From Escherichia phage MatMar: a DNA stretch of 50,761 nt. The translations under genes were made by a program, and so were the position numbers. Of the stretch, positions 6,184-26,738 are shown piece by piece. Where the stretch lies: the sequence record OR896829.1; one strand, given 5' to 3'. The notes under the pieces are model-generated. The model ran no database searches. It was not told where the DNA came from and was given only the letters and a program-made list of their open reading frames with translations. Every line of letters begins with the position of its first letter. Positions within the stretch are counted from its first letter, which is position 1.

Positions 6184-6203
6184 TTTAACAAAAAGTGCTA
6201 TCA
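6184..6203 (-). repeat. 22-bp AAATAGCAC element, leftward orientation inside rightward late region
   Basis: + strand reads tttaacaaaaagtgctat; no good -10 on the - strand (TATTCA). Confidence 0.6.
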
Positions 6204-6205
6204 TG

Positions 6206-6235
6206 AGGCTGTTACTTGTTAACAGCCTTTTTTAT
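6206..6235 (+). terminator. terminator-like hairpin upstream of capsid gene
   Basis: ggctgtta cttgt taacagcc followed by ttttttat. Confidence 0.5.
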
Positions 6236-6247
6236 AGGAGAAAAATC

Positions 6248-7222
6248 ATGACAAAGAAAAAATATGATGAGCTAGACGCTTCCATTGTGTCTAATCACCT
6301 GCAATTGCAAGGTATCAAGGGTGACGCTTCCGACATGGGTATTTGGACTGCGCAGGAGTTACACAAAATCCGATCCACTGCTTACGAAAAAGAGTACCCA
6401 GCGGGTTCTGCGCTTCGCGTCTTCCCTGTCACCAATGAACTGAGCGACACCGACAAAACTTTCGAGTATCAGACTTTTGATAAAGTTGGTTACGCGAAAA
6501 TTATTGCAGACTACACCGACGACCTGCCGACCGTTGACGCTCTTATGACTTCTGAGTTTGGCAAAGTGTTCCGCATGGGTAACGCTTTCCTGATCTCAAT
6601 TGACGAAATCAAAGCAGGTCAGCGAACTGGCAAAAGCCTTTCTACTCGCAAGGCTAACGCAGCGCAGAATGCACATGATCAGCTTATTAACTTCCTGGTT
6701 TTCAAAGGTTCCAAGCCTCATAAGATCGTTTCCGTTTTCGATCATCCAAACCTGACTAAAATCACGTCAAAAGGATGGCTGAGTAACGACGGAAACACCA
6801 AGTTTCCAGAAGTTGCAAGCGATGAACTGGAGACTGCAATCGAAACGATCGAGGAAGTAACCAAAGGTCAGCATCGCGCGACCAACATCCTGATTCCGCC
6901 GTCTATGCGTAAAGTCCTTACGGTTCGAATGGAAAATACCACTGAAAGCTATTTGGAATACTTCCAGAAGCAAAACGACGGTATCACCATCGACTCCATT
7001 GCAGAGCTTGAGGATATTGACGGCAAAGGCACTAAAGGCTGCCTGGTTTACGAAAAAGATCCAATGAACATGAGTATTGAGATCCCGGAGGCATTCAATA
7101 TGCTGCCTGCACAGCCGAAAGATCTGCATTTTAAAGTTCCTTGTACTTCAAAGTGCACTGGCCTTACAATTTACCGTCCGTTTACGATGGTTCTAATTAC
7201 TGGCTTGAAAAAGGCTGTGTAA
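6248..7222 (+). CDS. major capsid protein (putative)
   Basis: 324 aa from ATG 6248 with AGGAG RBS; lambda gpE-like position after decoration-like genes; flanked by terminators. Confidence 0.6.
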   Translation: MTKKKYDELDASIVSNHLQLQGIKGDASDMGIWTAQELHKIRSTAYEKEYPAGSALRVFPVTNELSDTDKTFEYQTFDKVGYAKIIADYTDDLPTVDALMTSEFGKVFRMGNAFLISIDEIKAGQRTGKSLSTRKANAAQNAHDQLINFLVFKGSKPHKIVSVFDHPNLTKITSKGWLSNDGNTKFPEVASDELETAIETIEEVTKGQHRATNILIPPSMRKVLTVRMENTTESYLEYFQKQNDGITIDSIAELEDIDGKGTKGCLVYEKDPMNMSIEIPEAFNMLPAQPKDLHFKVPCTSKCTGLTIYRPFTMVLITGLKKAV

Positions 7223-7235
7223 TTAGATAACATGG

Positions 7236-7262
7236 GGAGCCTTAAGGGTTCCCCTTTTTATT
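7236..7262 (+). terminator. terminator-like hairpin after capsid gene
   Basis: ggggagcc ttaa gggttcccc followed by T-run. Confidence 0.5.
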
Positions 7263-7277
7263 TATGGAGTGCGCAAA

Positions 7278-7544
7278 ATGAGCAAAAATTTAAAACTTAA
7301 AGTAACTGGCGTTTGCATGATTATTATGGATGGTAAGCGTTATCATCCTGGTGATGAAATTGAAATTGAATCTGATCGCATTAATGATTCCGCAATTGAA
7401 TACCTGATCGCTCGCGGAGATGTGGAAGTTAAAGACAATTCAGAAATTAACGAGCAAATCAAGGAGAAAGCGGATAAGAAGCGCAAAAAAGATCCTACCG
7501 AGGGTAAGAGCCGCAAAGAGCTAGAGGATGGCGGCGAATATTAA
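7278..7544 (+). CDS. hypothetical protein, Lys-rich C-terminus
   Basis: 88 aa from ATG 7278 with GGAG RBS. Confidence 0.4.
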
Positions 7545-7590
7545 TAATTGGGGCGCTTATGCGCCCCTTGTCACATCTGGAGAAAACAAA

Positions 7591-8010
7591 ATGGTAGATG
7601 AATTTTACACAGACGCTGAAATCATGCAGCAAATCGTGAAGTTAGCGCCGCCAATGCAACAAGTTGATCCCGATTTAATTGTGGCATGGATTGAGCTTGC
7701 TAAAGAGTTTGTTTGCAAAAAGCGGTTTAAAAACTCATACCCTAAAGCGGTTGCGCTTTACACCTTGCACCTTATGACGTTGGACGGAGCTATGAAACAG
7801 GAAGGTGAGAGCGTGGAGAGTTACTCACGCCGTATTGCGTCGTTTTCCCTGACTGGAGAATTTAGTCAGACGTTTGACCGCGTGACCAATGACGCAAGCG
7901 GAAAGATGATCCGCCAGACACCGTGGGGAAAAATGTACGAGGCGCTAAACCGTAAGCATGGTGGCGGATTTGGCCTGGTAACTGGATTGCGCCGGAGGTG
8001 TTGCCGATGA
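7591..8010 (+). CDS. putative head-tail connector protein
   Basis: 139 aa from ATG 7591 with GGAG RBS; synteny between capsid and tail genes. Confidence 0.4.
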
Positions 8011-8378
8011 ACTACAATGAGATCGCACGATTGGCTACGGCTGGAATTAACTTTTTCAGCGATGGCGCTGGTGAGTTTAAGTGTATCACGCAACAGGGTA
8101 GCGTAGATATTGTGGGAGGCGAGGAGGTAGAGAAGCCGGAAGTAAGCGTAATGATTAAAGGTCTGATCCGGTCGCCTCGAACGCGTGAGGTGGACGGCGA
8201 AACAATCCGCGTAACCGACAAGCTGGGAGTTTTCACTAATTCCGTAGAAATTAAGAACGGGTATCACATTGATGTTGATGGTGAGCGTTATATAGTAGTT
8301 GAAGCGCGACCAGTCAGACAGACAAACATCACGGTCGCCTACAGGCCAATACTTAGGAGGGTTGCGGTACATGGCTAA
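8007..8378 (+). CDS. putative head closure / head-tail adaptor protein
   Basis: ATGA overlap with upstream gene; synteny. Confidence 0.35.
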
Positions 8379-8811
8379 CTACAAGATCAAGGAATTTCAC
8401 GGCGACATTGACCGCTGGATTAACGCCGTAAATGATGGTCTTGAGGATTGCATAGAATTGTTCGCCGTTAAGGTACACACAGATCTGGTAAGACGCTCGC
8501 CAGTTGATACGGGGCGCTATCGGGGAAACTGGCAGGTGACAGCAAATTCCCCGCCACTGTACGCACTGAATCAATATGATAAGCACGGAGATAAGACTAT
8601 TGCGGAAGGCAAGCGGGCAATCTTTGCCATCATGCGTGGCGGCGGCGCGGTAAGGTCGATTTATTTTTCCAATATGTTGATTTATGCTAACGCCCTAGAG
8701 TACGGGCATTCAAAGCAAGCGCCAGCGGGTGTGCTGGGAATTGTTGCAGCGAAGTTAAGAACGTATATAGCAGAAGCAATCAAAGAGTCGAGGAAAAAAA
8801 ATGGACTATGA
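8371..8811 (+). CDS. putative neck / tail completion protein
   Basis: 146 aa from ATG 8371 with GGAGGG RBS; synteny. Confidence 0.35.
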   Translation: MANYKIKEFHGDIDRWINAVNDGLEDCIELFAVKVHTDLVRRSPVDTGRYRGNWQVTANSPPLYALNQYDKHGDKTIAEGKRAIFAIMRGGGAVRSIYFSNMLIYANALEYGHSKQAPAGVLGIVAAKLRTYIAEAIKESRKKNGL

Positions 8812-9199
8812 ATTGATGTTGGCAGCGCGCAAGGCGCTTGCTGGTGAATTTGAAAGCAGATTTAAAATCGCTTATGAAAACGTCGAGTTTGTACCGCCTG
8901 CCGATGGTTCTATGTGGTTGCGGTTCGATTATACAGAAGTTGACAAGGAGTTTTTCTCAATTGACCGTAGATGTGTTTCTTATATTGGGATGGTTCAGAT
9001 TGGCGTTATTATTCCTCCAGGCGCTGGATCTGACAAAGGTAGAAAACTTGCTAAAGAGATTGCCAGTTTTTTCTATGATGGTAAAATCTTAGAAACTGGC
9101 TATATTAGCGAAGGGGCGAAAGTCCATAAGCTACAAAAAAGTGAAACTGGTTGGTTGATTCCGATCAGGTTCTATGTTCGAATTGAAACAAAGGAGTAA
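8801..9199 (+). CDS. putative tail terminator protein
   Basis: 132 aa directly upstream of major tail protein gene (lambda gpU-like position). Confidence 0.35.
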   Translation: MDYELMLAARKALAGEFESRFKIAYENVEFVPPADGSMWLRFDYTEVDKEFFSIDRRCVSYIGMVQIGVIIPPGAGSDKGRKLAKEIASFFYDGKILETGYISEGAKVHKLQKSETGWLIPIRFYVRIETKE

Positions 9200-9205
9200 T
9201 TTACT

Positions 9206-9868
9206 ATGCACCTTCCTAACGGTTCTCAAATTTTTATTGAAAGCAATCGAGCTACTGATGTGCAAGCAACGGCTATTTCTAACGCAGCAGATCCTGTATT
9301 TACAGTTGCATCAGGCGGCACTGAGTTTAAGAAAGGTGATTATGTAATTATCACTACTTCCTCATGGGGTAAGATGGTTGATCGCGTTCTTCGCGTCAAG
9401 CAGAATGGCGAAGAAACTAGCGTAACGCTTGAGGGTATTGATACTACAGATCAGAATATCTTCCCTTCCGGTGGTACTGCATCGTTTGCGAAAATCAATT
9501 CATGGGTTGAAATTCCATGCGTTCAGGATCTGTCACAGGACGGCGGCGAACAGCAATATTACACTTATCAGTGTTTATCTGACGACCAGGAGCAGCAGCT
9601 ACCAACATATAAAAGCGCGGTATCTCTTACCTACACTTTCGCGCATGAGTTCGATAATCCAATTTATCCATTGCTTCGAAAAGCTGATGAAGGAGGTGAG
9701 GTTACGGCGTTGCGAATGTTCGTTCCAAAGGCGAAAGAAATGCGTTGCTGGGCTGGTGTTCTTTCGTTTAACGAGATCCCGCAGACGACCGTCAACGAAA
9801 TGGAAACCGTTTCCCTTTCCGTTTCTCTGAAAGGTCGATTCACCTTCCTTCCTTCCGATGTTCAGTAA
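9206..9868 (+). CDS. major tail (tube) protein, putative
   Basis: 220 aa; AAGGAG RBS; followed by terminator and chaperone genes as in lambda V-G-T-H order. Confidence 0.5.
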   Translation: MHLPNGSQIFIESNRATDVQATAISNAADPVFTVASGGTEFKKGDYVIITTSSWGKMVDRVLRVKQNGEETSVTLEGIDTTDQNIFPSGGTASFAKINSWVEIPCVQDLSQDGGEQQYYTYQCLSDDQEQQLPTYKSAVSLTYTFAHEFDNPIYPLLRKADEGGEVTALRMFVPKAKEMRCWAGVLSFNEIPQTTVNEMETVSLSVSLKGRFTFLPSDVQ

Positions 9869-9870
9869 TT

Positions 9871-9897
9871 ACAAGGGGCATTGCGCCCCTTTTTTCG
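9871..9897 (+). terminator. rho-independent terminator-like hairpin
   Basis: aggggcattgcgcccct followed by tttttt. Confidence 0.55.
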
Positions 9898-9932
9898 TTC
9901 CTGTAGAATCTATCAAACAAGTCATTCAGACT

Positions 9933-9953
9933 TTTAACAAAAAATGCTATTTA
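9933..9953 (-). repeat. 22-bp element variant (ATAGCAT), leftward orientation, abutting RBS of chaperone gene
   Basis: + strand reads ttttaacaaaaaatgctattt immediately before AAGGAG and ATG 9967. Confidence 0.55.
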
Positions 9954-9966
9954 AGGAGAAATCAAA

Positions 9967-10281
9967 ATGGCAAAGATGAAATTAACACTTGGCCCACTGC
10001 CGGACTTCAAGCTACCAGTAAACTTCGTTATGCCTGACGGGAGCGAACAGAAAATCATTTTCACCGTGAAGCACAAGAAAGCGACGGAAGTCCAGGAGCT
10101 TTACCGGAAAGAGGGGATCAAAGATTCCGACTTTATCATGAACATTGCGACGGGTTGGGATCTTGAAGAAGAATTTAACCACGAAAACGCAAAACTGTTA
10201 GTCGATTATTACCCTGGGTCAGCGTTGGCGCTCGTTCAATCCTACTTAGGCGCTCTGGCTGGTCAGCGCGTAAAGGGTTAA
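9967..10281 (+). CDS. tail assembly chaperone (gpG-like)
   Basis: 104 aa directly upstream of tape measure gene; slippery heptamer near its 3' end. Confidence 0.6.
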   Translation: MAKMKLTLGPLPDFKLPVNFVMPDGSEQKIIFTVKHKKATEVQELYRKEGIKDSDFIMNIATGWDLEEEFNHENAKLLVDYYPGSALALVQSYLGALAGQRVKG

Positions 10282-10592
10282 GGCGCGCGGTTTACCTGTT
10301 TTATCAGAAGCCACCGACAGACGCAGAGCTTGAAGCGGTCGGATTAACACGCGCCGACTACGAAGGCGAGGAGCCGCCGGAGGTTATTTTCGATGAAAGC
10401 ATGATGCAGTCATGGGATGTTTTTTGTGCAATGCAAACGCAGTGGAGAAGCGCCGGATCTGGTGCTTACGGATTTGACTATAATGTTTTGCCGATGTTGT
10501 TCAGAATCTATAAAATAGAAGATGAAGAAATGGCCTTAAACGATTTGCGAATCATGGAACAAAAAGCATTAGAAATGATGCACCAAAAATAG
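9967..10592 (+). CDS. tail assembly chaperone -1 frameshift fusion product (gpGT-like), predicted
   Basis: slippery heptamer A AAG GGT at 10272-10278 just before the TAA stop; -1 frame is open from 10179 to TAG at 10590-10592. Confidence 0.45.
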
Positions 10593-10599
10593 CAATCAA

Positions 10600-10622
10600 A
10601 GCGCCTACGGGCGCTTTTTTAA
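10600..10622 (+). terminator. terminator-like hairpin
   Basis: aaagcgcctacgggcgcttt followed by T-run. Confidence 0.5.
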
Positions 10623-10634
10623 TATCTGGAGTAA

Positions 10635-13565: not shown

Positions 13566-13567
13566 TC

Positions 13568-14742: not shown

Positions 14743-15473
14743 TGATTAGTGCAAAGATTAAACTTGAAATAATGCAGCACGTTAAAGACGAATACCCGCG
14801 CGAGGCGTGCGGGGTTATCACTCAAAAATCGCGGGTACAGAAATATCACCGCATAACAAATGTGCATGATGATCCAGAAAATCACTTTGAAATGGATACG
14901 ATGGAATACGTCGAAGCGTGCGACAGTGGCGAGCTTATTGCTATTGTGCATTCACACACTGGAGATGGGGCAAGTACAATCCCCAGTGCGCACGACACAT
15001 GTATGTGTGACGAAACAGGCGTATCATGGGTTATCGTTTCCTGGCCGGAAGGCGATATGCGAATAATAGAGCCGGAAACACGCCCACTGACTGGTCGCCC
15101 CTGGTCGCTTGGTTCTTATGATTGCTGGGGGCTTGTTATGGCCTGGCACAAAGAGAATGGCGTAGAACTGAACGACTTCCGAAAACCTTACGAATGGTGG
15201 AAGCCTGAATACGGCGAGAATCTCTATGAGGAAAACTATCTGAAAGAGGGGTTCATACCAACCAATCAGGATCCGAAGGCAGGCGATATGGTGATTTTTC
15301 AGCTATCATCGCCAGTCTGGAATCACGCCGGAATCTACTTAGGCAACAACCAGCTATTGCATCACGCTTTTGGTAAGCTATCAAAAATTGATCTGTATTC
15401 CGGCTGGTATCAGGAACATGCGGTAATGGTATGTAGGCATAAGGATCTAAAATATGACATTGAAAACAATTAA
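14742..15473 (+). CDS. tail assembly protein (lambda gpK-like, MPN/JAB plus NlpC/P60-like)
   Basis: 243 aa; HSHTGDG metal-binding-like motif then Cys/His peptidase-like C-terminal half; ATGA overlap with upstream gene. Confidence 0.7.
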   Translation: MISAKIKLEIMQHVKDEYPREACGVITQKSRVQKYHRITNVHDDPENHFEMDTMEYVEACDSGELIAIVHSHTGDGASTIPSAHDTCMCDETGVSWVIVSWPEGDMRIIEPETRPLTGRPWSLGSYDCWGLVMAWHKENGVELNDFRKPYEWWKPEYGENLYEENYLKEGFIPTNQDPKAGDMVIFQLSSPVWNHAGIYLGNNQLLHHAFGKLSKIDLYSGWYQEHAVMVCRHKDLKYDIENN

Positions 15474-16089: not shown

Positions 16090-16109
16090 TCCGTATAATG
16101 TAAACACGC

Positions 16110-16133
16110 AAATAGCACAAAAGGTAAAAAAAC
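16110..16133 (+). repeat. degenerate copy of the AAATAGCAC element directly upstream of the J-like gene
   Basis: aaatagcacaaaaggtaaaaaaac abutting ATG 16134; preceded by TATAAT at 16094-16099. Confidence 0.4.
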
Positions 16134-19100
16134 ATGGCTAAAAATATTATAACTGGCAGTAAGGGTGGGTCGAAAAAACCTTACGTGCCTAAAGAGCTTG
16201 AAGATAACCTGATTTCAATAAACAAAATTAAAATCCTGCTTGCCGTATCCGATGGTGAGTGTGACGCGGATTTCTCATTACGTGATCTGTATCTTGATGA
16301 TGTTCCGGTTATCGCTGACGACGGAACTGTAAACTACCCAGGCGTTAAAGCAGAGTTTAGGCCAGGAACGCAGGATCAGGAATACATTCAGGGTTTTACT
16401 GACACGTCAAACGAGGTAATCATCAATCGAGATTTGACTACAAATACGCCATATGTTTTGTCGGTAACGAATAAGACGCTTTCCGCAATACGCATCAAAA
16501 TGCTAATGCCAGTGGGTATTAAGCAGGAGGATAACGGCGACCTAGTGGGCGTTACCGTTACATATGCAGTTGATATGGCGGTTGATGGTGATTCATACAA
16601 AGAAGTAATGATCGACACCATTAACGGCAAGACGCGCACCGGATACGACCGTAGCCGACGCATTGACTTGCCGAAATTCAATGAGCGTGTTTTGCTTCGC
16701 GTTCGCCGCGTTACGCCTGACAGCACAACGTCGAAGGTTACAGACCTGATCCGCATACAGAGTTACGCCGAGGTAATTGATGCAAAATTCCGTTACCCTC
16801 TGACTGGGCTTGTTTACGTCGAGTTTGACAGCGAACTGTTCCCTAACCAGATCCCTAACATTTCAATTAAAAAGAAATGGAAGTTGATTCAGGTTCCCAG
16901 CAATTACGATCCTGTATCTCGTCGGTATTCTGGAACATGGGACGGAACATTTAAAAAAGCGTGGTCAAATAATCCGGCATGGGTTCTTTACGATTTGGTT
17001 ACTAATCAGCGTTATGGACTTGATCAACGAGAATTGGGAATACAGATCGACAAGTGGAGTCTATACGAGGCTGGGGTGTATTGTGATCAGATGGTTCCAG
17101 ATGGCAAGGGAGGAACAGAGCCGCGCTACCTATGCGATATGGTGATTCAAAGCCAGATTGAGGCTTATCAGCTTATTCGTGACATTTGCTCAATCTTCCG
17201 AGGAATGACTTTTTGGAATGGCGAGAGCTTGTCTGTAGTGGTGGATAAACCGCGCGAGCCATCATACATCTTTACAAACGACAACGTAATTAATGGAGAT
17301 TTTCAGTACACGAGCGCCAGCGAAAAGAGCATGTACACTCAATGCAACGTTACGTTTGACGATGAGCAAAACATGTATCAACAGGACGTTGAGGGCGTAT
17401 TTGACACTGAGGCGGCGTTACGTTTTGGCTACAATCCAACAAGTATCACGGCGATTGGTTGTACCCGTCGAAGCGAAGCGAATCGACGCGGACGCTGGAT
17501 ACTGAAAACCAACCTGCGCAGCCAAACGGTAAACTTTGCCACCGGGCTGGAAGGGATGATCCCATCTATCGGTGACGTTATCGCGATTTCTGATAACTTC
17601 CTGAGCAGCAACTTAACGCTCAACCTATCAGGGCGCGTAATGGAAGTTTCCGGCTTGCAGGTATTCGTTCCGTTTAAGATTGACGCTAGACCAGGTGATT
17701 TCATTATCATCAACAGACCGGACGGAAAACCAGTTAAGCGCACAATCTCAAAAGTCAGCGCGGACGGAAAAACCATTGAGTTAAACGTAGGGTTCGGATT
17801 CGACGTAAAACCGGACACCGTATTTGCAATCGACCGAACAGACCTTGCGTTGCAACAGTACGTTGTAACAGGAATCAGCAAGGGTGACACTGAGGAAGAA
17901 TTTACCTACTCGATTACGGCGGTTGAATACGATCCTAACAAATACGACGAAATTGATTATGGCGTAAACATTGATGATCGTCCGATCTCAATCGTGCAGC
18001 CGGACATCATGCAAGCACCGGAAAATGTTCAGGTGTCGTCATACTCCCGTGTTGTCCAGGGTGTTAGCGTTGAGACGATGGTTGTGTCGTGGGATAAAGT
18101 GCCTTATGCGTCACTGTATGAAATGCAATGGCGAAAAGGTGATGGCAACTGGCTAAATACGCCGCGCACAGCGAACAAAGAGACGGAAGTAGAAGGAATT
18201 TATTCAGGGAACTATCAAGTAAGGGTCAGATCTGTTTCAGCTTCCGGCAGTACATCAGCATGGTCGAAGATTGCAACAGCTTCCCTGACTGGTAAAGTTG
18301 GCGAGCCAGGCGCGCCAGTTAACTTAACCGCATCAGATAATGAAGTTTTCGGCATTCGTATTAAATGGGGCATGCCAGAAGGAAGCGGAGACACGGCCTA
18401 CATTGAGCTTCACCAATCGCCAGACGGAACGGTTGAAAACTCAAGCCTGTTAACGCTGATCCCATACCCGCAATATGAATACTGGCACAGTACACTACCA
18501 GCGGGTCAGGTTGTCTGGTATAGAATCCGCAGCGTTGACAGAATCGGCAACGTTTCTAGCTGGACTGATTTTGTTCGTGGCATGGCATCAGATGATGTTG
18601 AATCTGTTTTAGGAGATATTCTTGATAAGATTTTTGATAGCGAAGCAGGGCAAGAAATCAAGGAGAACGCCATCGAAAGCGCGAACAAGATCAAAGACCA
18701 GGCGCAGGCAATAATCCAGAACGCTTTGGCGATTGACGCTAACTTGAAATGGACGCGAGTACAGAACGGAAAGCGAAAGGCTGAATATGGTCATGCTGTT
18801 CAGTTGATCGCAAATGAGACTGAGGCGCGAGTAACTCAAATCGAAGAATTGAGGGCTTCAATTGATGGCGAGATAACATCAAGCATCAAGACAGTTCAGG
18901 AGGCAATCGCCACTGAATCAGAGACACGAGCAACTCAAATTCAGCAGCTTGATTCTAAATTCACGAAAGAAATCGACGGCGTGCGCAAGGATACTTCTGC
19001 AAGCATTAGCGATGTAAGGCAGACAATCACTAACGAGTCAGAAGCGCGAGCGCAAGCGGTACAACAGCTTGATGCAAAATTCACCAAAGAGATTAATGAT

Positions 19101-19712: not shown

Positions 19713-19740
19713 AAAAGGGGGCATAGCCCCCTTTAATTTT
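19711..19740. terminator. bidirectional terminator-like hairpin between convergent genes
   Basis: aaaaaagggggcatagccccctttaatttt. Confidence 0.6.
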
Positions 19741-20903: not shown

Positions 20904-20934
20904 CTTTGTATCTCCTTAGTTGTTGTTGTTTCCA

Positions 20935-20979
20935 ACTATACAAGATCTTGAACATCGAGTTTAGCAAAAAGTGCTATTT
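20935..20979 (-). promoter_or_regulatory. AAATAGCAC module (TTGCTA variant) with TATAGT box 21 bp downstream, upstream of lipoprotein operon
   Basis: - strand reads aaatagcactttttgctaaac N21 tatagt then RBS and ATG 20903. Confidence 0.45.
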
Positions 20980-21358: not shown

Positions 21359-21386
21359 TTGACTAAACGCATCAAATAGCTAAAAT
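21359..21386 (+). promoter_or_regulatory. sigma70-like promoter (TTGACT N16 TAAAAT) upstream of exonuclease operon
   Basis: read directly; spacer contains AAATAGC. Confidence 0.45.
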
Positions 21387-21415
21387 GCAGGCATACCAAC
21401 CAATGAGGACGAATC

Positions 21416-22477
21416 ATGAATAAATTTATGGCTTACACCAGCGCAGAAATGAGCAACGAGCTTTATCACGATCCAGAAGCATGGACGGCTGAATATGTTA
21501 GCGGTTCAAGTCTGGCAGAGATTTACAGCACTTGCCCTGCTGCGTGGAAGTTCAAGCCGCGCGACGATAAGAGCAAGGCGCTCGTTTTCGGTACGCAGTC
21601 GCATACCAACTTCGAAAGCAAGGAGCTATTTGATAAAACTTACCGCCGTGCGCCAGCGCCGGAAGACTTCAAAGAGTTGATCACAAGCCAAACGGCATTG
21701 GCTGCAAAGCTGAAATCTTTTGGCCTGAAAGGGACAAGCGGAAAGGCTTACCCCGACCTTATCAAAATGATGGTTGATTGTGGCGAAGACCTTAACATCA
21801 TGTGGTTAATCGACATGATCGCAGAAAGCCAGGCCAGAGCCGACGGCGTACAGTTAATCGACGCGAAAGATTACGATGCTTGCGTGGCAATGCGCCAGGT
21901 TCTGGAATCCATACCGGAACATAACGCCTGCATGAACAGCCCGACGGCACAGCGTGAATTGTCGTTATTCGGCGAAATCAACGGCGTAAAAGTTAAAGTT
22001 CGATGTGATCACGTTGACGTAGTGAAAAACGTCACCGCCACGCTGATTGATGGTTATGACGAAAAAGGTCAGCCAATTTGTCGTGATATTGTTTATCCAG
22101 AAGCAGTGGTGATCACAGACTACAAAACAACAATGAGCGCAAATCCTATGGAGTTTATGCGACTGGCTTACAACCACGGTTATTATTTGAAAATGGCACT
22201 GCAACATGATTTATTCAGGAAGGCATATCCAGATGAGAAGCGACCTGTAGTTATGCGCCTGTTAGCCCAGGAGAAGAAGGAGCCTTATCTACCGCTGGCT
22301 TTCCGCATGAACAGCGAGCAATTGAAAATAGGCCGAGTCCAGTATGTTAGCGTGATCCAACAGTTTGCTATGTGCCAGCATCATGACGTATGGCCTGCGT
22401 ATGCAAACGGTGAGCCGGAAGTTTGCTTGGATACGCCTGAATTTGTGCGCCGACAGTTCAAGCAGTATCTGATTTAA
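21416..22477 (+). CDS. PD-(D/E)XK exonuclease (RecE / lambda-exo-like), putative
   Basis: 353 aa; VVITDYKTT D-x-K motif; followed by annealing protein and SSB genes. Confidence 0.55.
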   Translation: MNKFMAYTSAEMSNELYHDPEAWTAEYVSGSSLAEIYSTCPAAWKFKPRDDKSKALVFGTQSHTNFESKELFDKTYRRAPAPEDFKELITSQTALAAKLKSFGLKGTSGKAYPDLIKMMVDCGEDLNIMWLIDMIAESQARADGVQLIDAKDYDACVAMRQVLESIPEHNACMNSPTAQRELSLFGEINGVKVKVRCDHVDVVKNVTATLIDGYDEKGQPICRDIVYPEAVVITDYKTTMSANPMEFMRLAYNHGYYLKMALQHDLFRKAYPDEKRPVVMRLLAQEKKEPYLPLAFRMNSEQLKIGRVQYVSVIQQFAMCQHHDVWPAYANGEPEVCLDTPEFVRRQFKQYLI

Positions 22478-22484
22478 ACCGCAC

Positions 22485-22520
22485 AAATAGCTAAACAAAT
22501 GATTAGCGCGGTGTTATAAT
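22485..22520 (+). repeat. short variant of the element (AAATAGCTAAAC) with TATAAT about 21 bp downstream inside a small hairpin
   Basis: aaatagctaaac ... cgcgg tgttataattcg ccgcg. Confidence 0.35.
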
Positions 22521-22553
22521 TCGCCGCGCAGGTTAACAAATAAGGGATTAATT

Positions 22554-23207
22554 ATGCAGCTATCAGAGAAATTCGATCTTGTACTTCCGGCGCTACACAA
22601 AGCGCGTTCAATGTTTGTGAAGGTTAAAAAAGACCGACAAAACAGCCATCTGAAAAACCGTTACGCCACACTTGACGCTGTACTTGATGCAATAACTCCA
22701 GCGTTGATGGATAACGACCTAATGCTAATGCAGGACGGCAGCCGCATCGAAAATAACACGCTGCGAGTCGAAACAACAGTAATGCACACATCAGGTCAGT
22801 GGGTGAAATATTTCTTTGACATCCCAATCGTGAAGAATGATCCGCAAGGCGTAGGTTCTGCTTTCACCTATGGGCGACGTTATGCGGCGGCGGCAGCGTT
22901 CGGTTTAAGCCAGGCTGACGACGATGCGCAAATCGCTGTTAAGTCTGCGAACGACTGGAAACGCGATCTTGATAAATGTGAGTCAGTACCTGAATTGCAG
23001 GAAACATTCAAGAAAGCATGGAGCGCAAGCGATCCAGCAAGTAAACAGGTCGTTAAGGAACACTACGAGAAACGCAAAGCAGAAATCGAAATCGGCGGCG
23101 CGCGCGGTTTTAATCCAGCGCAACCAAAAAATAATCTTGCAAGTGATTCCGTTGACACCGCAAAACATGAGCAAGTACAATCGGCTAACATCACCGATTT
23201 TGAATAA
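22554..23207 (+). CDS. single-strand annealing protein (Erf/Rad52-like), putative
   Basis: 217 aa; [13 protein letters not shown] and [12 protein letters not shown] motifs; synteny with exonuclease and SSB. Confidence 0.5.
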
Positions 23208-23232
23208 AAACGGGGCGCTTGCGCCCCATTTT
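23205..23232 (+). terminator. hairpin between annealing-protein and SSB genes
   Basis: ggggcgc ttg cgcccc then attttca. Confidence 0.4.
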
Positions 23233-23248
23233 CATAGGAGAAAACAAA

Positions 23249-23695
23249 ATGCACGTAGTCACAGGAACGATCCGAAAAGAGCCATACACAAAAGAAGGAC
23301 AAAGCAACTCCGGCGCTTACAAGATGTATATTGTGGAATTGTCGGAGTCTATTAAAGACAGACAGAGTGGTGAACGGATATATTCAAACTATAGCGCAAC
23401 GTTCTTCGCATCAAGCGATGTAATGCGTCAGTGGTATGATAACGCGTTGCAGGTTGGTAAAGTCGTTTCCATCTCTGCGGAAGTTCTACGCATCAACCAG
23501 CGCGAGCATAACGGTAACAACTACGTGACGTTGCAGATGGAACAACCACGACTGGTATTCAGCCAGCGCACCGAAGGACAGCAGCAACAGCAGAATCAAG
23601 GTGGATGGGGGCAACCGCAACAGCAGCATCCTCGCCAGCAACCACAGCAAAGCAATCAGCCTCCAATGAATTTTGACGACGACATTCCATTCTGA
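23249..23695 (+). CDS. ssb: single-stranded DNA-binding protein
   Basis: 148 aa from ATG 23249 with AGGAGA RBS; Gln/Gly/Pro-rich linker and acidic C-terminal tail DDDIPF. Confidence 0.8.
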   Translation: MHVVTGTIRKEPYTKEGQSNSGAYKMYIVELSESIKDRQSGERIYSNYSATFFASSDVMRQWYDNALQVGKVVSISAEVLRINQREHNGNNYVTLQMEQPRLVFSQRTEGQQQQQNQGGWGQPQQQHPRQQPQQSNQPPMNFDDDIPF

Positions 23696-23703
23696 TAACA
23701 AAA

Positions 23704-23729
23704 GCCCCGCATATGCGGGGCATTTTTTT
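23704..23729. terminator. bidirectional terminator-like hairpin
   Basis: gccccgcatatgcggggc followed by ttttttt. Confidence 0.6.
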
Positions 23730-24423
23730 AGTCTAACGTGGTTGGTTTGTTTACCAGTGCCGCTACAACCGCTTTTAGCTCGTCAATTTCTTTTCTCATC
23801 TCCTCATTTTCCGCTTTCAGATTCTTGACGTGGTGAATCAGTGGAACAGTGAGGCGGTCATACATAACGCCTTCCGCCACCATGCCATTACTTGAAGCAA
23901 TGGCAGGATCTTCTCCTTCTTGCAGCGGTCGCCAGTGAACGTACTCCGGCGCAACCTCTCCAACTTCCTCTGCAATCAGTCCGTACCATCCCCAATCTTT
24001 ACGGTCGCTTTCACAAGTTGACCGATACCACACAGGACGCATTTCAAGCATCAGATCCGCATATTCATCAATAACCGATTCTACGCTGCGCTTATAACGA
24101 GAAGAGGAAGTGGAGCGTAAAACTTGCGACACTCCAGCATTTGGATCAAGCCATAAGTTTGCTGATTGAGCGGTTGTGTTAAGATTAAATAAATAAAATG
24201 CATCGTTACCAGTTAGGGGGTAAAAACTCCCACCATACCTTCCGCTACCCAACTCGGATGATAGATCAGTTTGTTTTAGATACGGTTTCAATTTATTTTC
24301 AACATCAGTAGTTGATGCTTTTCCGGCAACATCCTGTTTTAGTGTCGAAACATCCTGATTTATCGTAGAAACATCATTTTTTAGCTTCGTTATATCACTA
24401 GGTATAACAGTTACTGTAGCCAT
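23728..24423 (-). CDS. putative tail fibre-associated protein (coiled-coil N- and C-termini)
   Basis: 231 aa downstream of the side tail fibre gene on the same strand. Confidence 0.35.
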   Translation of the reverse strand: MATVTVIPSDITKLKNDVSTINQDVSTLKQDVAGKASTTDVENKLKPYLKQTDLSSELGSGRYGGSFYPLTGNDAFYLFNLNTTAQSANLWLDPNAGVSQVLRSTSSSRYKRSVESVIDEYADLMLEMRPVWYRSTCESDRKDWGWYGLIAEEVGEVAPEYVHWRPLQEGEDPAIASSNGMVAEGVMYDRLTVPLIHHVKNLKAENEEMRKEIDELKAVVAALVNKPTTLD

Positions 24424-24435
24424 TTTCCTAACTCC

Positions 24436-24714
24436 TTAAGCCCATTCTCTAATAGGCTGATCTAACTCAACCACGTAGTCGTTAAAAATTACGGCATCAA
24501 ACTTATCATCAATGATTCGCACATTGACGAAATAGCCGTCGTTCTTTCTCGCAACCTCCTCGCCATCGTCAGTGACCGAAATTACCTTATATGTGTATCC
24601 AATTACATCAATCATGATTGCGTTTTGAAGTTCATCATTATCATGCCATTCTATTTCGTCCAGAAAGGCGGAAAACTCCGCCTTGTCTGCAAATTTAAGT
24701 GTTAAATCTTTCAT
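24436..24714 (-). CDS. hypothetical protein (possible fibre assembly factor)
   Basis: 92 aa acidic protein between the two fibre-related genes. Confidence 0.4.
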   Translation of the reverse strand: MKDLTLKFADKAEFSAFLDEIEWHDNDELQNAIMIDVIGYTYKVISVTDDGEEVARKNDGYFVNVRIIDDKFDAVIFNDYVVELDQPIREWA

Positions 24715-26702
24715 TAAACAATCTCCCCCATTTGATGATCTGTTAATGCTTTATGCCAGATTCTGAAGTTTCTAACGTGCCCGAAAAGGTGTCTCTCTCC
24801 AGTGTTTGTTTGTCCGCCAATCCTTATGGTCGCAGTAGATACAACGTGACTATAAGTTGCCTTTGCTGAAGATGATAGAACAGCGTTACAAAGTGCTTGC
24901 GTATCTCCATTTTCACCACATCTAAATCCAGCGATAAATTTTCTACTTGTTGTTTTTACATATTTATTGATTCTTCCTGATCCGTCTCCTATATCCACAT
25001 AAGGAGATCCAGTATCAACAGCCGAACCACCTCGCAAACCGTGAATTATCGCTTGCCCTTCCTTTTGCCCAGTGAAATCCATAATTCTCGGAGCTGCATT
25101 AGGTGGAGAGTCCCACTCCCAATTACGATGAACCTCACTCATTACCGTTAGCGGAAGATTGTAGATATTGTTTTTTATTGGGAGAGTTACAAGATCGCTT
25201 GCCCGTGTTACTGGATTTGCTTCTGTAATTATGAAAGAAGAAGCACAAGACCCTCCCTCAACTTGCGGAGTTGCAATATAAATGTAATCGTCGGCAGTGG
25301 TTGCAGCCCCCTTTTCAGGTGCATATTGCACCATTGCACCAATCATGCTTTCCTGTTCTAATGCTGTGATCGTGGCCTCAAAAAATATCCATTTGCTTGA
25401 TTCATCTCTTACTGCTCTTGCTGTTATCCTGTTTGCAGCACCGCCTGTTTTTTCTATTGACAAGTCCTCAAGTCCGAGATAAGCATCACCCAAAAAGGTA
25501 TATCCACTATCATTATAATTTTCAAATCTAAGCCTGCACCTTATGTTTCCTTTACCTCCCTTTACTCTGCATGAGATTGTTACTCTTTTTTCTTCACCAG
25601 TAACATCAAAACCCTTACTACCAGATACTGTAACTATGTTAATAGCCGATGTTTGCCCTACCATTTCTGGCTTCAATGTAAACTTGCCAAATGAAAAACC
25701 GAAATCATCAACTCCTGATTGGTTTAATACCATGTTTGATGACTTGTTCCATTTTGAAGGATTGGTGCTATTTATAAGAAGGTTTGTTCTTTGCCCCTCG
25801 ATGAGAAGACCATCCTTTTCAAATCTAGGTTCATCAATAGCAGCATTAGTAAGCACGCCAGACTTATTAATGTAAGTAGCGGTTGATGCTCGTTTAAATT
25901 TAACAATCTTGTCGCCTGGCATTGTGATCTCATCATCACCTATGACAATCTTTTTGTATGACGGCGAGAATCCCGTAATCATATCAAGCGAATCATTAAA
26001 CGGTATCCACACGTCAGGCAATGGTTGCAATAAATCTTTGTAAGGTTCTGCCGCCTGCTTTGCGTATTCCTCCGCTTTATCTCGCGCACTTTCAGCGCCT
26101 GCCTTTGCGGTGTTCGCAGCATCACGCGCGGATTCAGCGCCAGACTTTGCTGCTTCAGCGCCAGTCTTTGCAGTGTTTGCAGCGTCGCGCGCGGATTCAG
26201 CGGCAGCCTTTGCAGTATCAGCGCCTTTCTTGCTATTCGCTGCATTTGTTGCGCTTGTCTTCGCGTTATTCTCGCTGGTTTTAGCTGCCTGCTGGCTTGC
26301 TGCTGCTGCGTCAGCATTTGTCTTTACGTCTTCTTGGATCTTCTGTAGCTTATCCCAATCAAAATCCTTGATGATCTCAATAAATCCAGCAAGCTCCGAC
26401 TCTTTCCCCATGTAGTAGCGCAATGTTTCCGCTACGTCTTGCGCCAGGCCATCAACAGTTAACGAGTCATGAAGCAAGATTATGTAGTCTGAACGGGGAA
26501 CAACAGCACCACCAGTGGTGATTGCTCGAATGCTAGTATCGTTGACCACTTCGGTGATAACTGCGGCCTGTAGCGGCTGAGTCAGAAAAATAATGGTTGC
26601 GCCGGAACGGATCAGCGTTAACTGCTCACGCCAGTTCGTCCCGTAGCCAGTTATATAGCCTTGAGCGTCCATTGACGCTTGACCTTTGCGATAAATTGCC
26701 AT
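24714..26702 (-). CDS. side tail fibre protein
   Basis: 662 aa from ATG at 26702 with AGGAGA RBS (ORF track starts at GTG 26726); tandem Ala/Lys-rich repeats AESARDAANTAK x3; lectin/jelly-roll-like C-terminal half. Confidence 0.65.
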   Translation of the reverse strand: MAIYRKGQASMDAQGYITGYGTNWREQLTLIRSGATIIFLTQPLQAAVITEVVNDTSIRAITTGGAVVPRSDYIILLHDSLTVDGLAQDVAETLRYYMGKESELAGFIEIIKDFDWDKLQKIQEDVKTNADAAAASQQAAKTSENNAKTSATNAANSKKGADTAKAAAESARDAANTAKTGAEAAKSGAESARDAANTAKAGAESARDKAEEYAKQAAEPYKDLLQPLPDVWIPFNDSLDMITGFSPSYKKIVIGDDEITMPGDKIVKFKRASTATYINKSGVLTNAAIDEPRFEKDGLLIEGQRTNLLINSTNPSKWNKSSNMVLNQSGVDDFGFSFGKFTLKPEMVGQTSAINIVTVSGSKGFDVTGEEKRVTISCRVKGGKGNIRCRLRFENYNDSGYTFLGDAYLGLEDLSIEKTGGAANRITARAVRDESSKWIFFEATITALEQESMIGAMVQYAPEKGAATTADDYIYIATPQVEGGSCASSFIITEANPVTRASDLVTLPIKNNIYNLPLTVMSEVHRNWEWDSPPNAAPRIMDFTGQKEGQAIIHGLRGGSAVDTGSPYVDIGDGSGRINKYVKTTSRKFIAGFRCGENGDTQALCNAVLSSSAKATYSHVVSTATIRIGGQTNTGERHLFGHVRNFRIWHKALTDHQMGEIV

Positions 26703-26718
26703 CTGTAATTTTCTCCTG

Positions 26719-26738
26719 TATAGCACTTTTTGCTAATG
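26719..26738 (+). repeat. AAATAGCAC element (TTGCTA variant) abutting tail-fibre RBS, oriented opposite to the gene
   Basis: + strand reads tatagcactttttgctaatg; no -10-like box at N22. Confidence 0.55.

Follow-up and report, generated by a model that had tools for sequence, protein, structure and literature searches.

MarA, SoxS and Rob are enterobacterial regulators of the AraC family that bind their site, the marbox, as a monomer. Searches for this site have used the definition gcannwwntgnnaaa (PMC12052159), and the reference class II promoter is that of micF, where the site is centred at -41.5 (PMC9638938, PMC8811837). At E. coli pbpG a marbox lying in the promoter spacer represses, and the lpxC marbox overlaps promoter P1 and is class II for P2 (PMC12052159). 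MarA and SoxS are in short supply when cells are not under stress, and Rob is said to be mostly sequestered (PMC5684230). A repeated box was published in 2024 in phage TLS, its function there being stated as unknown.

The window analysed here, i.e. the whole 50,761-nt stretch of DNA, is a near-complete genome of a Warwickvirus (Drexlerviridae), a T1-like coliphage, and the box considered below is the published 21-nt repeat of T1-like phages. We give its length as 17-20 bp (as a 17-mer or a 20-mer). The consensus ATAGCAC-NNN-TTGNTAA has 18 strong copies in the window against ~1.6 by chance. Allowing at most 2 mismatches, the pattern ATAGCACNNNTTGNTAA found 19 matches (1.58 expected), a count equalled in 0 of 100 shuffles of the window; 18 of the 19 are true family members, and a PWM scan of the window returned 18 sites of at least 20.8 bits and left the interval of 10-20 bits empty. 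Thirteen copies are canonical, i.e. they point forward to a non-structural gene, with the box centred at ~-41, a good -10 hexamer 20-21 nt on and no usable -35, an architecture that points to activator-dependent class II promoters of the micF type. When 46 canonical copies were scored, 37 had their best -10 at N=21, 5 at N=20 and 2 at N=22 (window copies in Table 1). The copy at 20961 falls within the region 6184-26738, yet is co-oriented with its own genes.

Table 1. Boxes and associated elements in the window (N, nucleotides from box to -10)
Feature	Position	Strand	Details
Forward box, terL/portal junction	1566..1582	+	ATAGCACGAATTGCTAA on + strand; includes terL stop codon
Hairpin near portal promoter	1597-1618		downstream of TATAAT 1590-1595
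Predicted capsid late promoter	6177..6204	+	-35 TTGCAC 6177-6182, 16-nt spacer, TGc-extended -10 TATCAT 6199-6204
Reversed box, capsid (MCP) site	6185..6201	-	31.0 bits; TTAACAAAAAGTGCTAT on + strand; 20-mer 6182-6201, ATAGCACTTTTTGTTAA on minus strand
Hairpin and T-run	6205..6235	+	directly past capsid -10; -13.2 kcal/mol, z -2.7
Late-sense -10 TAGAAT	9904..9909	+	past major-tail terminator; back-to-back with/overlapping antisense -10
Antisense extended -10 TGaTAGATT	9907..9915	-	exactly 21 nt from chaperone-site box; score 5.7
Reversed box, tail-chaperone site	9934..9950	-	29.5 bits; TTAACAAAAAATGCTAT on + strand; 20-mer 9931-9950, ATAGCATTTTTTGTTAA on minus strand
Degenerate forward box, J-like tail gene	16112..16130	+	ATAGCACAAAAGGTAAAAA
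Canonical box	20961..20977	-	N=20, TATAGT; minus-strand membrane/lipoprotein genes
Reversed box, side-tail-fibre site	26720..26736	+	26.4 bits; ATAGCACTTTTTGCTAA on + strand; gene on minus strand
Extended -10 TGcTATTCT, predicted fibre promoter	26748..26756	-	11 nt upstream of box
Dual-use box	28288..28304	+	canonical for + strand helicase gene; N=20, TATTAT 28325-28330
Canonical early box	30805..30821	+	-10 CATAAT, N=21
Canonical early box	31844..31860	+	-10 CATAAT, N=21
Canonical early box	35227..35243	-	-10 TATATT, N=21
Canonical early box, TTGACAA variant	37394..37410	-	-10 TAACAT, N=21
Canonical early box	38071..38087	-	-10 CATAAT, N=21
Canonical early box	39985..40001	-	-10 TACATT, N=21
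Canonical early box	41069..41085	-	-10 TACATT, N=21
Canonical early box	42464..42480	+	-10 CATAAT, N=21
Canonical early box, GAA subtype	43855..43871	+	-10 TATAAT, N=20
Canonical early box	45047..45063	+	-10 TATAGT, N=21
Canonical early box, GAA subtype	46478..46494	+	-10 TATAAT, N=21
Canonical early box	47825..47841	+	-10 TATTAT, N=21

The analysis shows the sequence identity of the box with the host marbox, its geometry and the conservation of its position, and we propose here a link between box and marbox; a literature search found no publication tying marboxes to T1-like phages. The definition gcannwwntgnnaaa finds 17 copies without mismatch in the window against 1.7 expected. Measured against the 20-bp consensus quoted in PMC2453137, the GAA subtype of the box agrees at 17 of 17 specified positions and the TTT subtype at 16, and GCACTAATTGCTAAA, a sequence identical to the ChIP-seq consensus marbox of PMC5684230, occurs at T1 39976 and at atuna 31972. 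Variation among 59 copies in three genomes is found mainly at positions 8, 9-10 (A/T only) and 14 (mostly C/T), where the marbox too is degenerate. E. coli micF has ACAGCACTGAATGTCAAAAC, followed exactly 21 nt from the end of the 17-mer by TAGAAT and, 7 nt on, by the annotated RNA start, so that the box-to--10 spacing in the phage is that of this class II promoter; at fumC, a second E. coli class II promoter, the spacing is ambiguous because the start site is unannotated. The E. coli rob promoter carries CAAAAAATGCTATTAT, identical at 16 of 16 positions to the phage capsid promoter of L049. A tblastn search with MarA and SoxS gave no match in the phage, and Pfam scans of 15 phage ORFs found no AraC-type HTH domain.

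The four copies named by the sequence-only reading (1564, 6184, 9933 and 26719) exist, at coordinates right to within 1-2 nt, and its orientations are borne out: the late copies at 6185, 9934 and 26720 are reversed with respect to the capsid, tail-chaperone and side-fibre genes, and the copy after terL is co-oriented, with TATAAT at 1590-1595, 7 nt past the box. The lack of a -10 at the canonical distance, which it had noted for all three reversed copies, applies at the capsid (score 0.6) and fibre (-4.1) sites and not at the chaperone site (TGaTAGATT, 21 nt away, 5.7). Of its two suggestions for these copies, that of bare sites modulating late genes is favoured by our analysis, in which each late copy overlaps or just follows a conserved sigma70-type late promoter. 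That reading had identified the box neither as the published repeat nor as a marbox match, nor had it seen that the capsid copy belongs to the late promoter. Late-site promoters and start sites are predictions throughout, and a generic promoter scan of the window was not enriched (34 found, 26.7 expected from shuffles). At 6185, 9934 and 26720 both position and orientation are shared with T1, atuna, TLS, Rtp and many IMG/VR relatives; over all late sites, position relative to the promoter is conserved whilst orientation varies (portal and J forward; capsid, chaperone and fibre reversed).

At the capsid gene the box is part of the predicted late promoter itself. The reversed box lies in the gap from the end of the decoration-like gene (6157) to the capsid ATG (6249); it makes up the promoter spacer and 3 nt at the start of the -10 (TGcTATnAT), and the promoter scan lists this promoter, with its TG. 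The box has the same position and orientation in T1 (15070), atuna (27344), TLS (15026) and 29 distinct IMG/VR sequences, and TTGnnn-N16-TAT[C/T/A][A/T]T is present in 29 of 29 distinct relatives (-10 scores 6.4-7.3); the Rtp site has a plain TTGCGT-N17-TATAAT without the box. The predicted start, ~6211, falls in the 5' arm of the adjoining hairpin, the stem of which shows compensatory changes across aligned relatives.

The chaperone-site box stands 3 nt before the AAGGAG of its gene (ATG 9967) in an arrangement with two -10 elements. It is present in ~31 of 43 related loci, and the ~12 loci without it also lack ~28-30 nt of intergenic DNA. The late-sense TAnAAT (6.9-7.5), from which a transcript would cross the box at ~+16 to +35, is separated from the box by a constant 28 nt in 23 of 24 relatives and is kept as TAATAT in lineages without the box. 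The antisense -10 has class II geometry and is directed into the major-tail-gene terminator; all 24 distinct related sequences have TAnnnT at N=21 (with TG in 21), and the 21-nt spacer drifts freely in sequence while its length is fixed. The fibre-site box, 2 nt from the AGGAG of the minus-strand gene (ATG 26702-26700), is shared by T1 (34902), atuna (7443), Rtp (33762) and lineage L057-L062; it has been lost from L052-L056 and KP36, and TLS has no copy upstream of gp55. At the place of the fibre -10, relatives have TGcTATTAT, TGcTAGAAT, TGcTAAAAT or TGaTAAAAT, and Rtp has TGcTACAAT 5 nt before the box.

The terL/portal arrangement is also present in atuna (31972) and Rtp (8425). Two further arrangements escaped the sequence-only reading. 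The J-site box begins 12 nt past a TATAAT (16094-16099), contains the Shine-Dalgarno sequence, and is conserved in T1 (25021), TLS (24908; DR8 of the TLS authors) and atuna (ACAGCACAAAAGGTTAAAAG); it is absent from Rtp and KP36. The box at 28288 is, in reverse, adjacent to the RBS of a minus-strand Cro-like regulator gene, the TATAAT of which (28331-28326, minus strand) is back-to-back with the helicase -10, and this dual use is conserved in T1, atuna, KP36 and L052-L062. The phage HTH regulator has one of the few plain sigma70 promoters together with a box in its leader, which fits a classical cascade with a phage-encoded activator.

Our best explanation, held at just short of even confidence, is that a host factor of the MarA/SoxS/Rob type activates early promoters through the box and blocks late ones. 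The box would serve as a near-optimal marbox, an asymmetric 20-bp site for MarA, SoxS and Rob (RamA in some other enterics), from which the bound factor would activate 13 promoters of non-structural, mostly early, genes at ~-41, as at micF. At the late sites we infer repression, the bound protein obstructing RNA polymerase at sigma70-type promoters: the box would cover ~-29 to -10 of the capsid promoter (as spacer and -10 start), ~-36 to -17 of the portal promoter (given a TATAAT only 7 nt past it), ~+3 to +22 of the fibre promoter and ~+7 to +25 of the J promoter, and would lie in the 5' leader of the chaperone and Cro-like regulator genes. The latter two boxes may also recruit polymerase to a class II promoter adjoining the late or regulator -10 and, since the two -10 elements are back-to-back, these promoters would compete. 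With the factor present, early genes would be on and late units held down; as to how this lifts, we can only conjecture that the factor might be titrated by replicating genomes (~20 sites each), decay or be displaced. Late-site architecture is conserved across subfamilies. Lineages without the box nevertheless retain the promoter (Rtp capsid; KP36 capsid, fibre and J), indicating that the box is an added regulatory layer and not part of basic promoter function, and its loss from late sites of some lineages indicates that it is dispensable there. Neither rob nor marA nor soxS emerged as required by the TLS-like phage LL5 in a Keio single-knockout screen (PMC7229145), although that screen scored only defects of at least ~20-fold and the three are mutually redundant; this result argues against strict dependence.

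That screen, which found no host-factor requirement, also suits an operator for a phage protein, most likely the conserved Cro/YdaS-like regulator (27804-28277, minus strand; T1 gp23 family). Synthesis of this regulator from its own sigma70 promoter would begin immediately; it would then activate box promoters from ~-41, autoregulate by way of its leader box and bind the late-promoter copies, and the marbox resemblance would be coincidence or deliberate mimicry. It has a single HTH (Pfam YdaS_toxin 5e-6, P22_Cro 1e-4, both under the gathering score) and is found in every relative examined. A TTGAAT- or TTGACT-type -35 and a perfect TATAAT precede its gene, the TLS authors count this promoter (P57 in TLS) among the only three that they accept as sigma70 promoters, and a box always adjoins the RBS. 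The pseudo-palindromic box core, TAGCA-N5-TG(C/T)TA, would suit a dimer; however, the palindrome is broken in most copies (TGTTA), the conserved flanks (ATA... and ...AAAAC) are asymmetric, and the strict orientation relative to the -10 at all canonical promoters would be unexpected with a symmetric dimer. The putative recognition helix differs among T1, TLS, Rtp and this phage whilst the box is invariant, a regulator accumulating during infection would repress late genes ever more, and chance would hardly produce agreement at all specified marbox positions combined with exactly the spacing and orientation of micF. We consider this operator rather unlikely.

The second suggestion of the sequence-only reading, that the reversed late copies are antisense promoters acting on the capsid, chaperone and fibre genes through antisense RNAs or head-on interference, could apply to the chaperone copy only, where the extended -10 is held at N=21 despite the drifting spacer; at 28288 this back-to-back layout serves a real gene, that of the helicase. 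No lineage has a usable antisense -10 at its capsid or fibre copy: capsid-site hexamers are without T at -7 and score below 2.5 in 28 of 29 sequences, and fibre copies of the window, T1 and atuna have no antisense -10 at N=20-22. Even the chaperone transcript would start ~10 nt before the major-tail terminator hairpin, with no conserved ORF or obvious target, and the whole module is missing from 12 related loci; as a general account, antisense transcription is improbable. Little probability also attaches to a reading in which no dedicated protein is needed and RNA polymerase itself recognises the box, as an intrinsic promoter element or through DNA shape (UP-like or A-tract), with late copies mere spacer. 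The TLS authors raised the UP-element reading, most copies of the A/T-rich box include a T5/A5 tract, and the capsid box provides the TG and TAT of the -10. The best-conserved positions are nevertheless the G/C-containing GCAC, and TTG; the GAA subtype occupies the same position without a T5/A5 tract like that of the main subtype, and copies at +3 to +35 would be unexplained. In Rtp and KP36, moreover, the capsid promoter is retained although its spacer is different or has decayed, so that invariance of the box elsewhere needs another reason. Boxes do lie where gene modules meet, the fibre gene is itself a mosaic module for host range, the phage has genes for RecE-like and Erf-like recombination proteins, and late copies come and go by lineage, as might be expected of leftover promoter cassettes or short homology patches for module exchange (e.g. 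fibre swaps) with no regulatory role. We regard such an origin as highly improbable: separate subfamilies, whose flanks have diverged, retain all the informative positions at the same three to five sites, and the register to the late -10 is constant (16-nt spacer; 28-nt gap; 5-11 nt), a constraint that patches do not need. If a host factor of the MarA/SoxS/Rob type does act through these boxes, one factor may switch the early genes of this phage on and hold its late genes off.

The 17-mer ATAGCAC-NNN-TTGNTAA (hereafter the box) is a real, non-random and conserved feature of this phage. Matches to TTAACAAAAAGTGCTAT with ≤3 mismatches number 16 in the window against 0.32 expected, and those to the looser pattern ATAGCACNNNTTGNTAA 19 against 1.58, of which 18 are clear family members; under a weight matrix built from 59 box copies of the window phage, T1 and the related phage atuna, these 18 score 20.8-34.3 bits and no other window position exceeds 10 bits. 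Over its first 12 kb the window shares 99.4-99.5% identity with Escherichia phages BEBK14, WaterSpirit and BabyEgg and, because of this near-identity to WaterSpirit (Drexlerviridae, Tempevirinae, Warwickvirus) and a first base that coincides with the window start, the window is evidently an essentially complete genome of a virulent T1-like coliphage. Structural genes occupy the plus strand from 1 to ~19.7 kb; on the minus strand, at 24.7-26.7 kb, is the side tail fibre gene, and replication genes and small genes of unknown function make up the remainder. The sequence-only reading had named four box copies in or near late genes, and all lie where it placed them: those at the capsid, tail chaperone and fibre genes, read as ATAGCAC...TAA, face away from the genes that they adjoin, and that between terL and the portal gene runs with the late genes (Table). 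It overlooked a fifth late-gene copy, before the J-like tail gene.

The repeat family is already known. When phage TLS was re-annotated in 2024, a 21-nt direct repeat, aaATAGCACnnnTTGnTAAAA, was reported in 18 intergenic copies of A, T and G subtypes, stated to lie along the direction of transcription ~76 nt upstream of start codons, and similar repeats were noted for T1, Rtp and Rogue1; the authors suggested that it might serve as a stoperator, enhancer or UP element and listed its role among open questions (PMC11447400). The window box belongs to this family, being intergenic, of TTT and GAA subtypes and present in 18-22 copies per genome, and all 18 window copies match aaATAGCACnnnTTGnTAAAA, the three reversed late ones among them. 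The TLS description of location holds for the 13 canonical copies. It does not hold for the reversed capsid, chaperone and fibre copies, which also lie closer to their start codons, nor for the portal and J copies, which are forward yet overlap or follow a -10. Supplementary Table S1 of the TLS paper contains a minus-strand copy between the decoration and capsid genes, contrary to the statement that all run along transcription, as well as a J-site copy (DR8, before tspJ), and neither is taken up in its text (PMC11447400); reversed or promoter-overlapping late copies receive no interpretation there, and identity with the marbox described below is not in that paper. When IMG/VR was scanned with ATAGCACNNNTTGNTAAAAC, multi-copy clusters among the matches listed occurred only in contigs of up to ~53 kb (46-53 kb where complete), the others being single matches in contigs of widely varying size. 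T1 (L002) additionally carries a forward copy, ATAGCACTAAATGTTAA, adjoining the RBS of its small terminase gene; no counterpart of ≥10 bits occurs in the window, the region upstream of the probable terS included.

Thirteen window copies have a good -10 at a near-fixed distance downstream, with a co-oriented non-structural gene beyond it. With N denoting the nucleotides between the end of the 17-mer and the -10, the best -10 in the 46 canonical copies of the window phage, T1 and atuna lies at N=21 in 37, N=20 in five and N=22 in two, against 1.7% of random positions having a hexamer that scores ≥5 at that distance. The early box spans ~-50 to -31, its centre ~-40 to -42 from the predicted start, and since the hexamer in the -35 place is AAAACN, with two or three of six positions matching, these promoters would have no usable -35, an arrangement consistent with dependence on an activator. 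A generic promoter scan of the window gave no enrichment over shuffles, and for this reason cross-phage conservation was used for promoters. The 21-nt spacer between early box and -10 often contains a G+C-rich hairpin; in T1 such spacer hairpins are annotated rho-independent terminators, so that one gene's terminator sits within the next gene's promoter, and the stop codon (TAG or TAA) of the upstream gene is often in or beside the box. Some 6-20 nt past many early -10s lies an initial transcribed sequence, (T/C)CATCGA(A/C)AACGA, shared by the window phage, T1, atuna and Klebsiella phage KP36, and some genes with it have a very short leader ahead of the ATG.

The box matches the marbox, i.e. 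the 20-bp sequence recognised by MarA, SoxS and Rob, three AraC-family regulators of E. coli. By the definition gcannwwntgnnaaa (PMC12052159), 17 of the 18 window copies have no mismatch, against 1.7 expected in the window, and the fibre copy has one; by the 20-bp consensus (A, not-G, R, GCAC, R, W, W, N, N, R, Y, Y, AAA, not-G, N; PMC2453137), copies fit 16-17 of the 17 specified positions; and the ChIP-seq consensus gcactaattgctaaa (PMC5684230) recurs letter for letter in one copy each of T1 and atuna. Variation among the 59 copies is concentrated at position 8, at positions 9-10, where only A or T occurs, and at position 14, where C or T predominates; these are the degenerate marbox positions. 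At class II marbox promoters, for which micF is the reference, the site lies forward over the -35 with its centre at -41.5 (PMC9638938, PMC8811837), the geometry found at the early copies and, among the late ones, only at the chaperone copy with respect to its antisense promoter. In MG1655 micF, ACAGCACTGAATGTCAAAAC is followed by exactly 21 nt from the end of the 17-mer to TAGAAT, and the annotated RNA start lies 7 nt beyond. Phage and micF sites are alike in being forward, with GCAC distal and AAAAC proximal, in 15 of 20 marbox positions, in the 21-nt spacing and in a weak -35; they differ in that micF is one host promoter that has other regulators as well, whereas the phage has at least 13 such promoters per genome, far less variable in sequence than host marboxes. 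A second class II candidate reference, fumC, has a perfect forward marbox and was set aside because candidate -10s lie at N=18-22 and no start is annotated. A literature search, whose incomplete coverage is no proof of novelty, returned neither a link between the marbox and these phages nor relevant start-site or transcriptome data for T1; the apparent marbox identity and the promoter-overlapping layout of the late copies are new as far as we could find.

Most late copies overlap predicted promoters. At the capsid site, the late strand of every relative carries ATAACAcAAAAAc, ~4 nt, TTGACG, TTGCAC or TTGAAC, a 16-nt spacer and TAT(C/T/A)(A/T)T, with TG two bases before this -10 and with spacer and TAT supplied by the reversed box, which together make a good predicted sigma70 promoter of the extended -10 type. 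In Rtp the same place is occupied by a plain TTGCGT-N17-TATAAT, which marks it as a promoter for whose function the box is dispensable. Because a covarying hairpin with a T-run follows the capsid -10 immediately, the predicted start falls within its 5' arm. At the portal gene, the forward box spans ~-36 to -17 of a predicted TATAAT promoter, and again a hairpin follows. Both hairpins are strong and terminator-like, with a T-run, and begin 1-2 nt after the predicted -10; transcripts begun there would contain only part of the 5' arm and would not be terminated, those reading through from upstream would end, and this overlap of terminator and promoter may underlie the 'transcriptons' that have been proposed for T1.

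Positions of box copies and associated features
Feature	Genome	Position	Strand or orientation	Detail
Capsid copy	window	6185	reversed	47 nt from start codon
Chaperone copy	window	9934	reversed	16 nt from start codon
Fibre copy	window	26720	reversed	17 nt from start codon
Portal copy	window	1566	forward	TATAAT 7 nt downstream
J copy	window	16112	forward	TATAAT and box within 16094-16136
Regulator/helicase copy	window	28288		
Capsid, chaperone and fibre sites	T1	15070, 18834, 34902	reversed	
Capsid, chaperone and fibre sites	atuna	27344, 23591, 7443	reversed	
Capsid-site copy	TLS (AY308796)	15026-15042	minus	15044..15024 in Supplementary Table S1
Capsid-site copy, decayed	KP36 (L186)	15358-15385		
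Small terminase copy	T1 (L002)	8362-8378	forward	
Copy identical to ChIP-seq consensus	T1	39976		
Copy identical to ChIP-seq consensus	atuna	31972		
Capsid -10 with hairpin	window	6199-6235		
Portal -10 with hairpin	window	1590-1624		
Early spacer hairpins (examples)	window	31861-31882, 35205-35226, 38049-38070		
Spacer hairpins annotated as terminators	T1 (L002)	38973-39001, 39998-40024, 41980-42007		
Initial transcribed sequence (example)	window	31893-31906	plus	
Initial transcribed sequence (example)	window	35184-35171	minus	
Initial transcribed sequence (example)	window	47878-47889	plus	
Cro-like regulator gene	window	27804-28277	minus	
Antisense ORF	window	5942-6169	minus	75 aa
Antisense ORF	window	9664-9843	minus	59 aa
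Predicted starts, ~7 nt past the -10	window	~6211, ~9916, ~16106	plus	capsid, chaperone and J
Predicted starts, ~7 nt past the -10	window	~9900, ~26741, ~28319	minus	chaperone antisense, fibre and regulator
Probable terS	window	50138		

The fibre and J boxes lie downstream of their predicted -10 elements. Before the fibre gene, the primase terminator is followed by TGcTATTCT (in relatives TGcTATTAT, TGcTAGAAT, TGaTAAAAT or TGcTACAAT), 5-11 nt, the reversed box, a Shine-Dalgarno sequence and the ATG, such that the box covers ~+3 to +22 of the predicted promoter. At the J site a degenerate forward box, ATAGCACAAAAGGTAAAAA, starts 12 nt past a perfect TATAAT and ends 3 nt ahead of the ATG, with the Shine-Dalgarno sequence inside it; it is kept in T1, TLS and atuna and missing from Rtp and KP36. 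At the Rtp J site just 7 nt separate a TAGAAT from the ATG, an arrangement that would point to a leaderless message.

The chaperone and regulator/helicase sites share a back-to-back layout. Past the major-tail terminator, all lineages have a TAnAAT on the late strand; those with the chaperone box also have, back-to-back with this -10, an opposite-strand TGaTAnnnT exactly 21 nt from the box, across a spacer whose sequence drifts freely, and those without the box lack the entire ~28-30 nt module. At the regulator/helicase copy, a predicted box-dependent promoter points to the helicase gene and an opposing TATAAT to the Cro-like regulator gene, whose RBS adjoins the box. The suggestion that the reversed copies are antisense promoters would apply at one site only, the chaperone, where a usable -10 lies at the fixed distance (TGaTAGATT in the window; a -10 at this place in 24 of 24 relatives); the capsid (TATTCA, score 0.6) and fibre (score -4.1) copies have none. 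Two antisense ORFs were rejected as having no promoter upstream of their starts, the longer also having a preceding Shine-Dalgarno-like sequence that is missing in T1. A role of the reversed box at the RNA level, in leaders, was likewise dropped: the chaperone, fibre and regulator leaders fold weakly and inconsistently (z -2.0, -1.1 and -0.65), and an RNA element would also leave unexplained why a promoter box is used again as its reverse complement.

Reversed copies occupy the same three sites in T1 (Tunavirinae) and atuna, and TLS has the capsid-site and Rtp the fibre-site copy. Of 46 IMG/VR loci around the major tail gene, all that include the region have the capsid-site copy (29 distinct sequences), and ~31 of 43 have the chaperone-site copy; among 12 primase-gene loci, the fibre-site copy is kept in one lineage and lost from another. 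KP36 (Webervirus) keeps all early copies and the regulator-site copy, but its capsid-site copy is decayed at key positions (ATATCACGAATCGTTAA; ATATCAC...TCGTTAA) and its chaperone, J and fibre sites are plain promoters with no boxes, so box control of late sites appears to be lineage-specific. Because the late copies are kept across T1, atuna, TLS, Rtp and IMG/VR loci and lost or decayed elsewhere, we read them as under selection in many lineages and yet dispensable add-ons. Among the related records, 22 GenBank entries for 'Campylobacter phage' (e.g. MG065636, A16a; host Campylobacter jejuni) share ~77% identity with the coliphage structural region, across 91% of it; they resemble enterobacterial phages of the T1-like group, and the host assigned to them merits checking.

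Late sites have mixed orientation and constant nearness to a predicted late promoter, whereas early promoters are rigid in both orientation and spacing, an arrangement that suits activation early and occupancy or competition late. The sequence-only proposal that the same factor touches the late genes is supported in outline. Each box copy would be bound by one MarA/SoxS/Rob-type monomer, which at early promoters would act as at micF and at the capsid, portal, fibre and J promoters would occlude polymerase; at the chaperone and regulator genes it would draw polymerase to the opposing promoter and also occupy the leader. Relief, we infer, would come by titration on replicated genomes or by decay of unstable MarA/SoxS. 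The overlap expected of repression, with a marbox on the -35, spacer, -10 or start, is predicted at the capsid, portal, fibre and J promoters, which have conserved -35 and -10 elements. Host precedents are a repressing marbox in the promoter spacer of pbpG and one at lpxC that overlaps P1 while activating P2 (PMC12052159). The phage box similarly overlaps core elements of predicted promoters and, at the regulator/helicase and chaperone sites, would resemble lpxC in serving as a class II site for one promoter whilst occluding another, although at the phage sites repression is only predicted and two of them lie in the 5' leader (+13 to +35), outside the usual range of occlusion. The host rob gene is a further parallel, MarA being said to repress it (Schneiders and Levy, 2006): ~60-75 nt upstream of the rob start codon, on the minus strand of L065, the rob promoter of MG1655 reads ...ACACTGAATGCTAAAACAGCAAAAAATGCTATTAT..., within which CAAAAAATGCTATTAT is 16/16 identical to the capsid late promoter of IMG/VR locus L049. 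A forward micF-like half-site lies just upstream of these 16 nt.

That a host factor (MarA, SoxS or Rob) reads the box, its role at late sites included, is a tentative conclusion, with chances we would put just short of even. We are more doubtful, though we think it possible, that MarA, SoxS or Rob would switch on all non-structural promoters and hold the late genes off until titrated by ~20 sites per replicating genome or until MarA/SoxS decay after host shut-off, the Drexlerviridae programme being so timed and development, possibly with the timing of the burst, responding to such inducers of the mar/sox/rob regulon as bile salts, salicylate, redox stress and antibiotics. In a Keio screen with the TLS-like phage LL5 the genes identified were confined to receptor, LPS, secB and ppiB, with rob, marA and soxS absent (PMC7229145); redundancy and the 20-fold threshold soften this result, but it excludes strict dependence on one factor. 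The serious alternative is that the box is read by the phage's own Cro/YdaS-like regulator, a classical phage-encoded activator. Its gene is served by one of the few plain sigma70 promoters, and the leader contains a box; we nevertheless judge the idea unlikely, since a chance match to both marbox and micF geometry is improbable, orientation at canonical promoters is strict, the box flanks are asymmetric, and the putative recognition helix varies among T1, TLS, Rtp and the window phage while the box is constant. The regulator has a single HTH, with weak, sub-threshold Cro/YdaS-type hits at residues ~57-90; its N-terminal part contains an invariant basic motif, DKRxxNGNNGxxR, and its conserved C-terminal part FDxNGK...RC with conserved cysteines; no Pfam family matches its N-terminal or C-terminal part, and a single-sequence AlphaFold model (pLDDT 35) was unusable. 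A MarA-like protein encoded by the phage was dropped as a candidate after tblastn with MarA and SoxS gave a best E of 4.9 and a Pfam scan of 15 window ORFs no AraC-type HTH domain.

Other phage systems offer partial parallels to a host-read box. The MotA box of T4 (with AsiA) lies at -30, and both MotA and phi29 p4, which also represses other promoters, are phage-encoded; as in T4 middle promoters and with p4, one factor's box replaces the -35 across a temporal promoter class, but here it matches the site of a host factor and no comparable phage protein was found. Stoperators of mycobacteriophage L5 are sites for a temperate phage's prophage repressor and act in a single orientation with respect to transcription. 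The analogy, proposed by the TLS authors (PMC11447400), holds insofar as a short asymmetric site recurs in many copies across the genome, some within transcription units. It breaks down in that this phage is annotated and classified as virulent and T1-like, the annotation of the 99.4% identical WaterSpirit containing no repressor or integrase module, and in that most copies lie upstream of promoters, at -41, and those at late sites have mixed orientation. An UP element would be an A/T-rich tract at -40 to -60, touched by the alpha C-terminal domain and with no fixed G/C core, whereas G4, C5, C7 and G13 of the box are invariant and copies extend from ~-50 to -31 at early promoters and from -29 to +35 at late sites. 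A symmetric operator was rejected as well, the palindrome being confined to TAGCA/TGCTA and broken in most copies.

The marbox match makes the question left open in 2024 on the T1-like 21-nt repeat (PMC11447400) experimentally addressable. Should the marbox link fail, the conserved overlap of box and late promoters still shows one factor touching both temporal classes. Should it hold, a virulent phage would build its early promoters and a late brake from the site of a host stress and antibiotic-resistance regulator, the scarcity of ordinary sigma70 promoters in these genomes would be explained, and promoter designs of both kinds, activated and repressed, would become available as a compact, portable pair. 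T1-like coliphages are notorious contaminants of laboratories and fermenters and are used in phage therapy collections; infection by this very common family would then be tied to the mar/sox/rob response.
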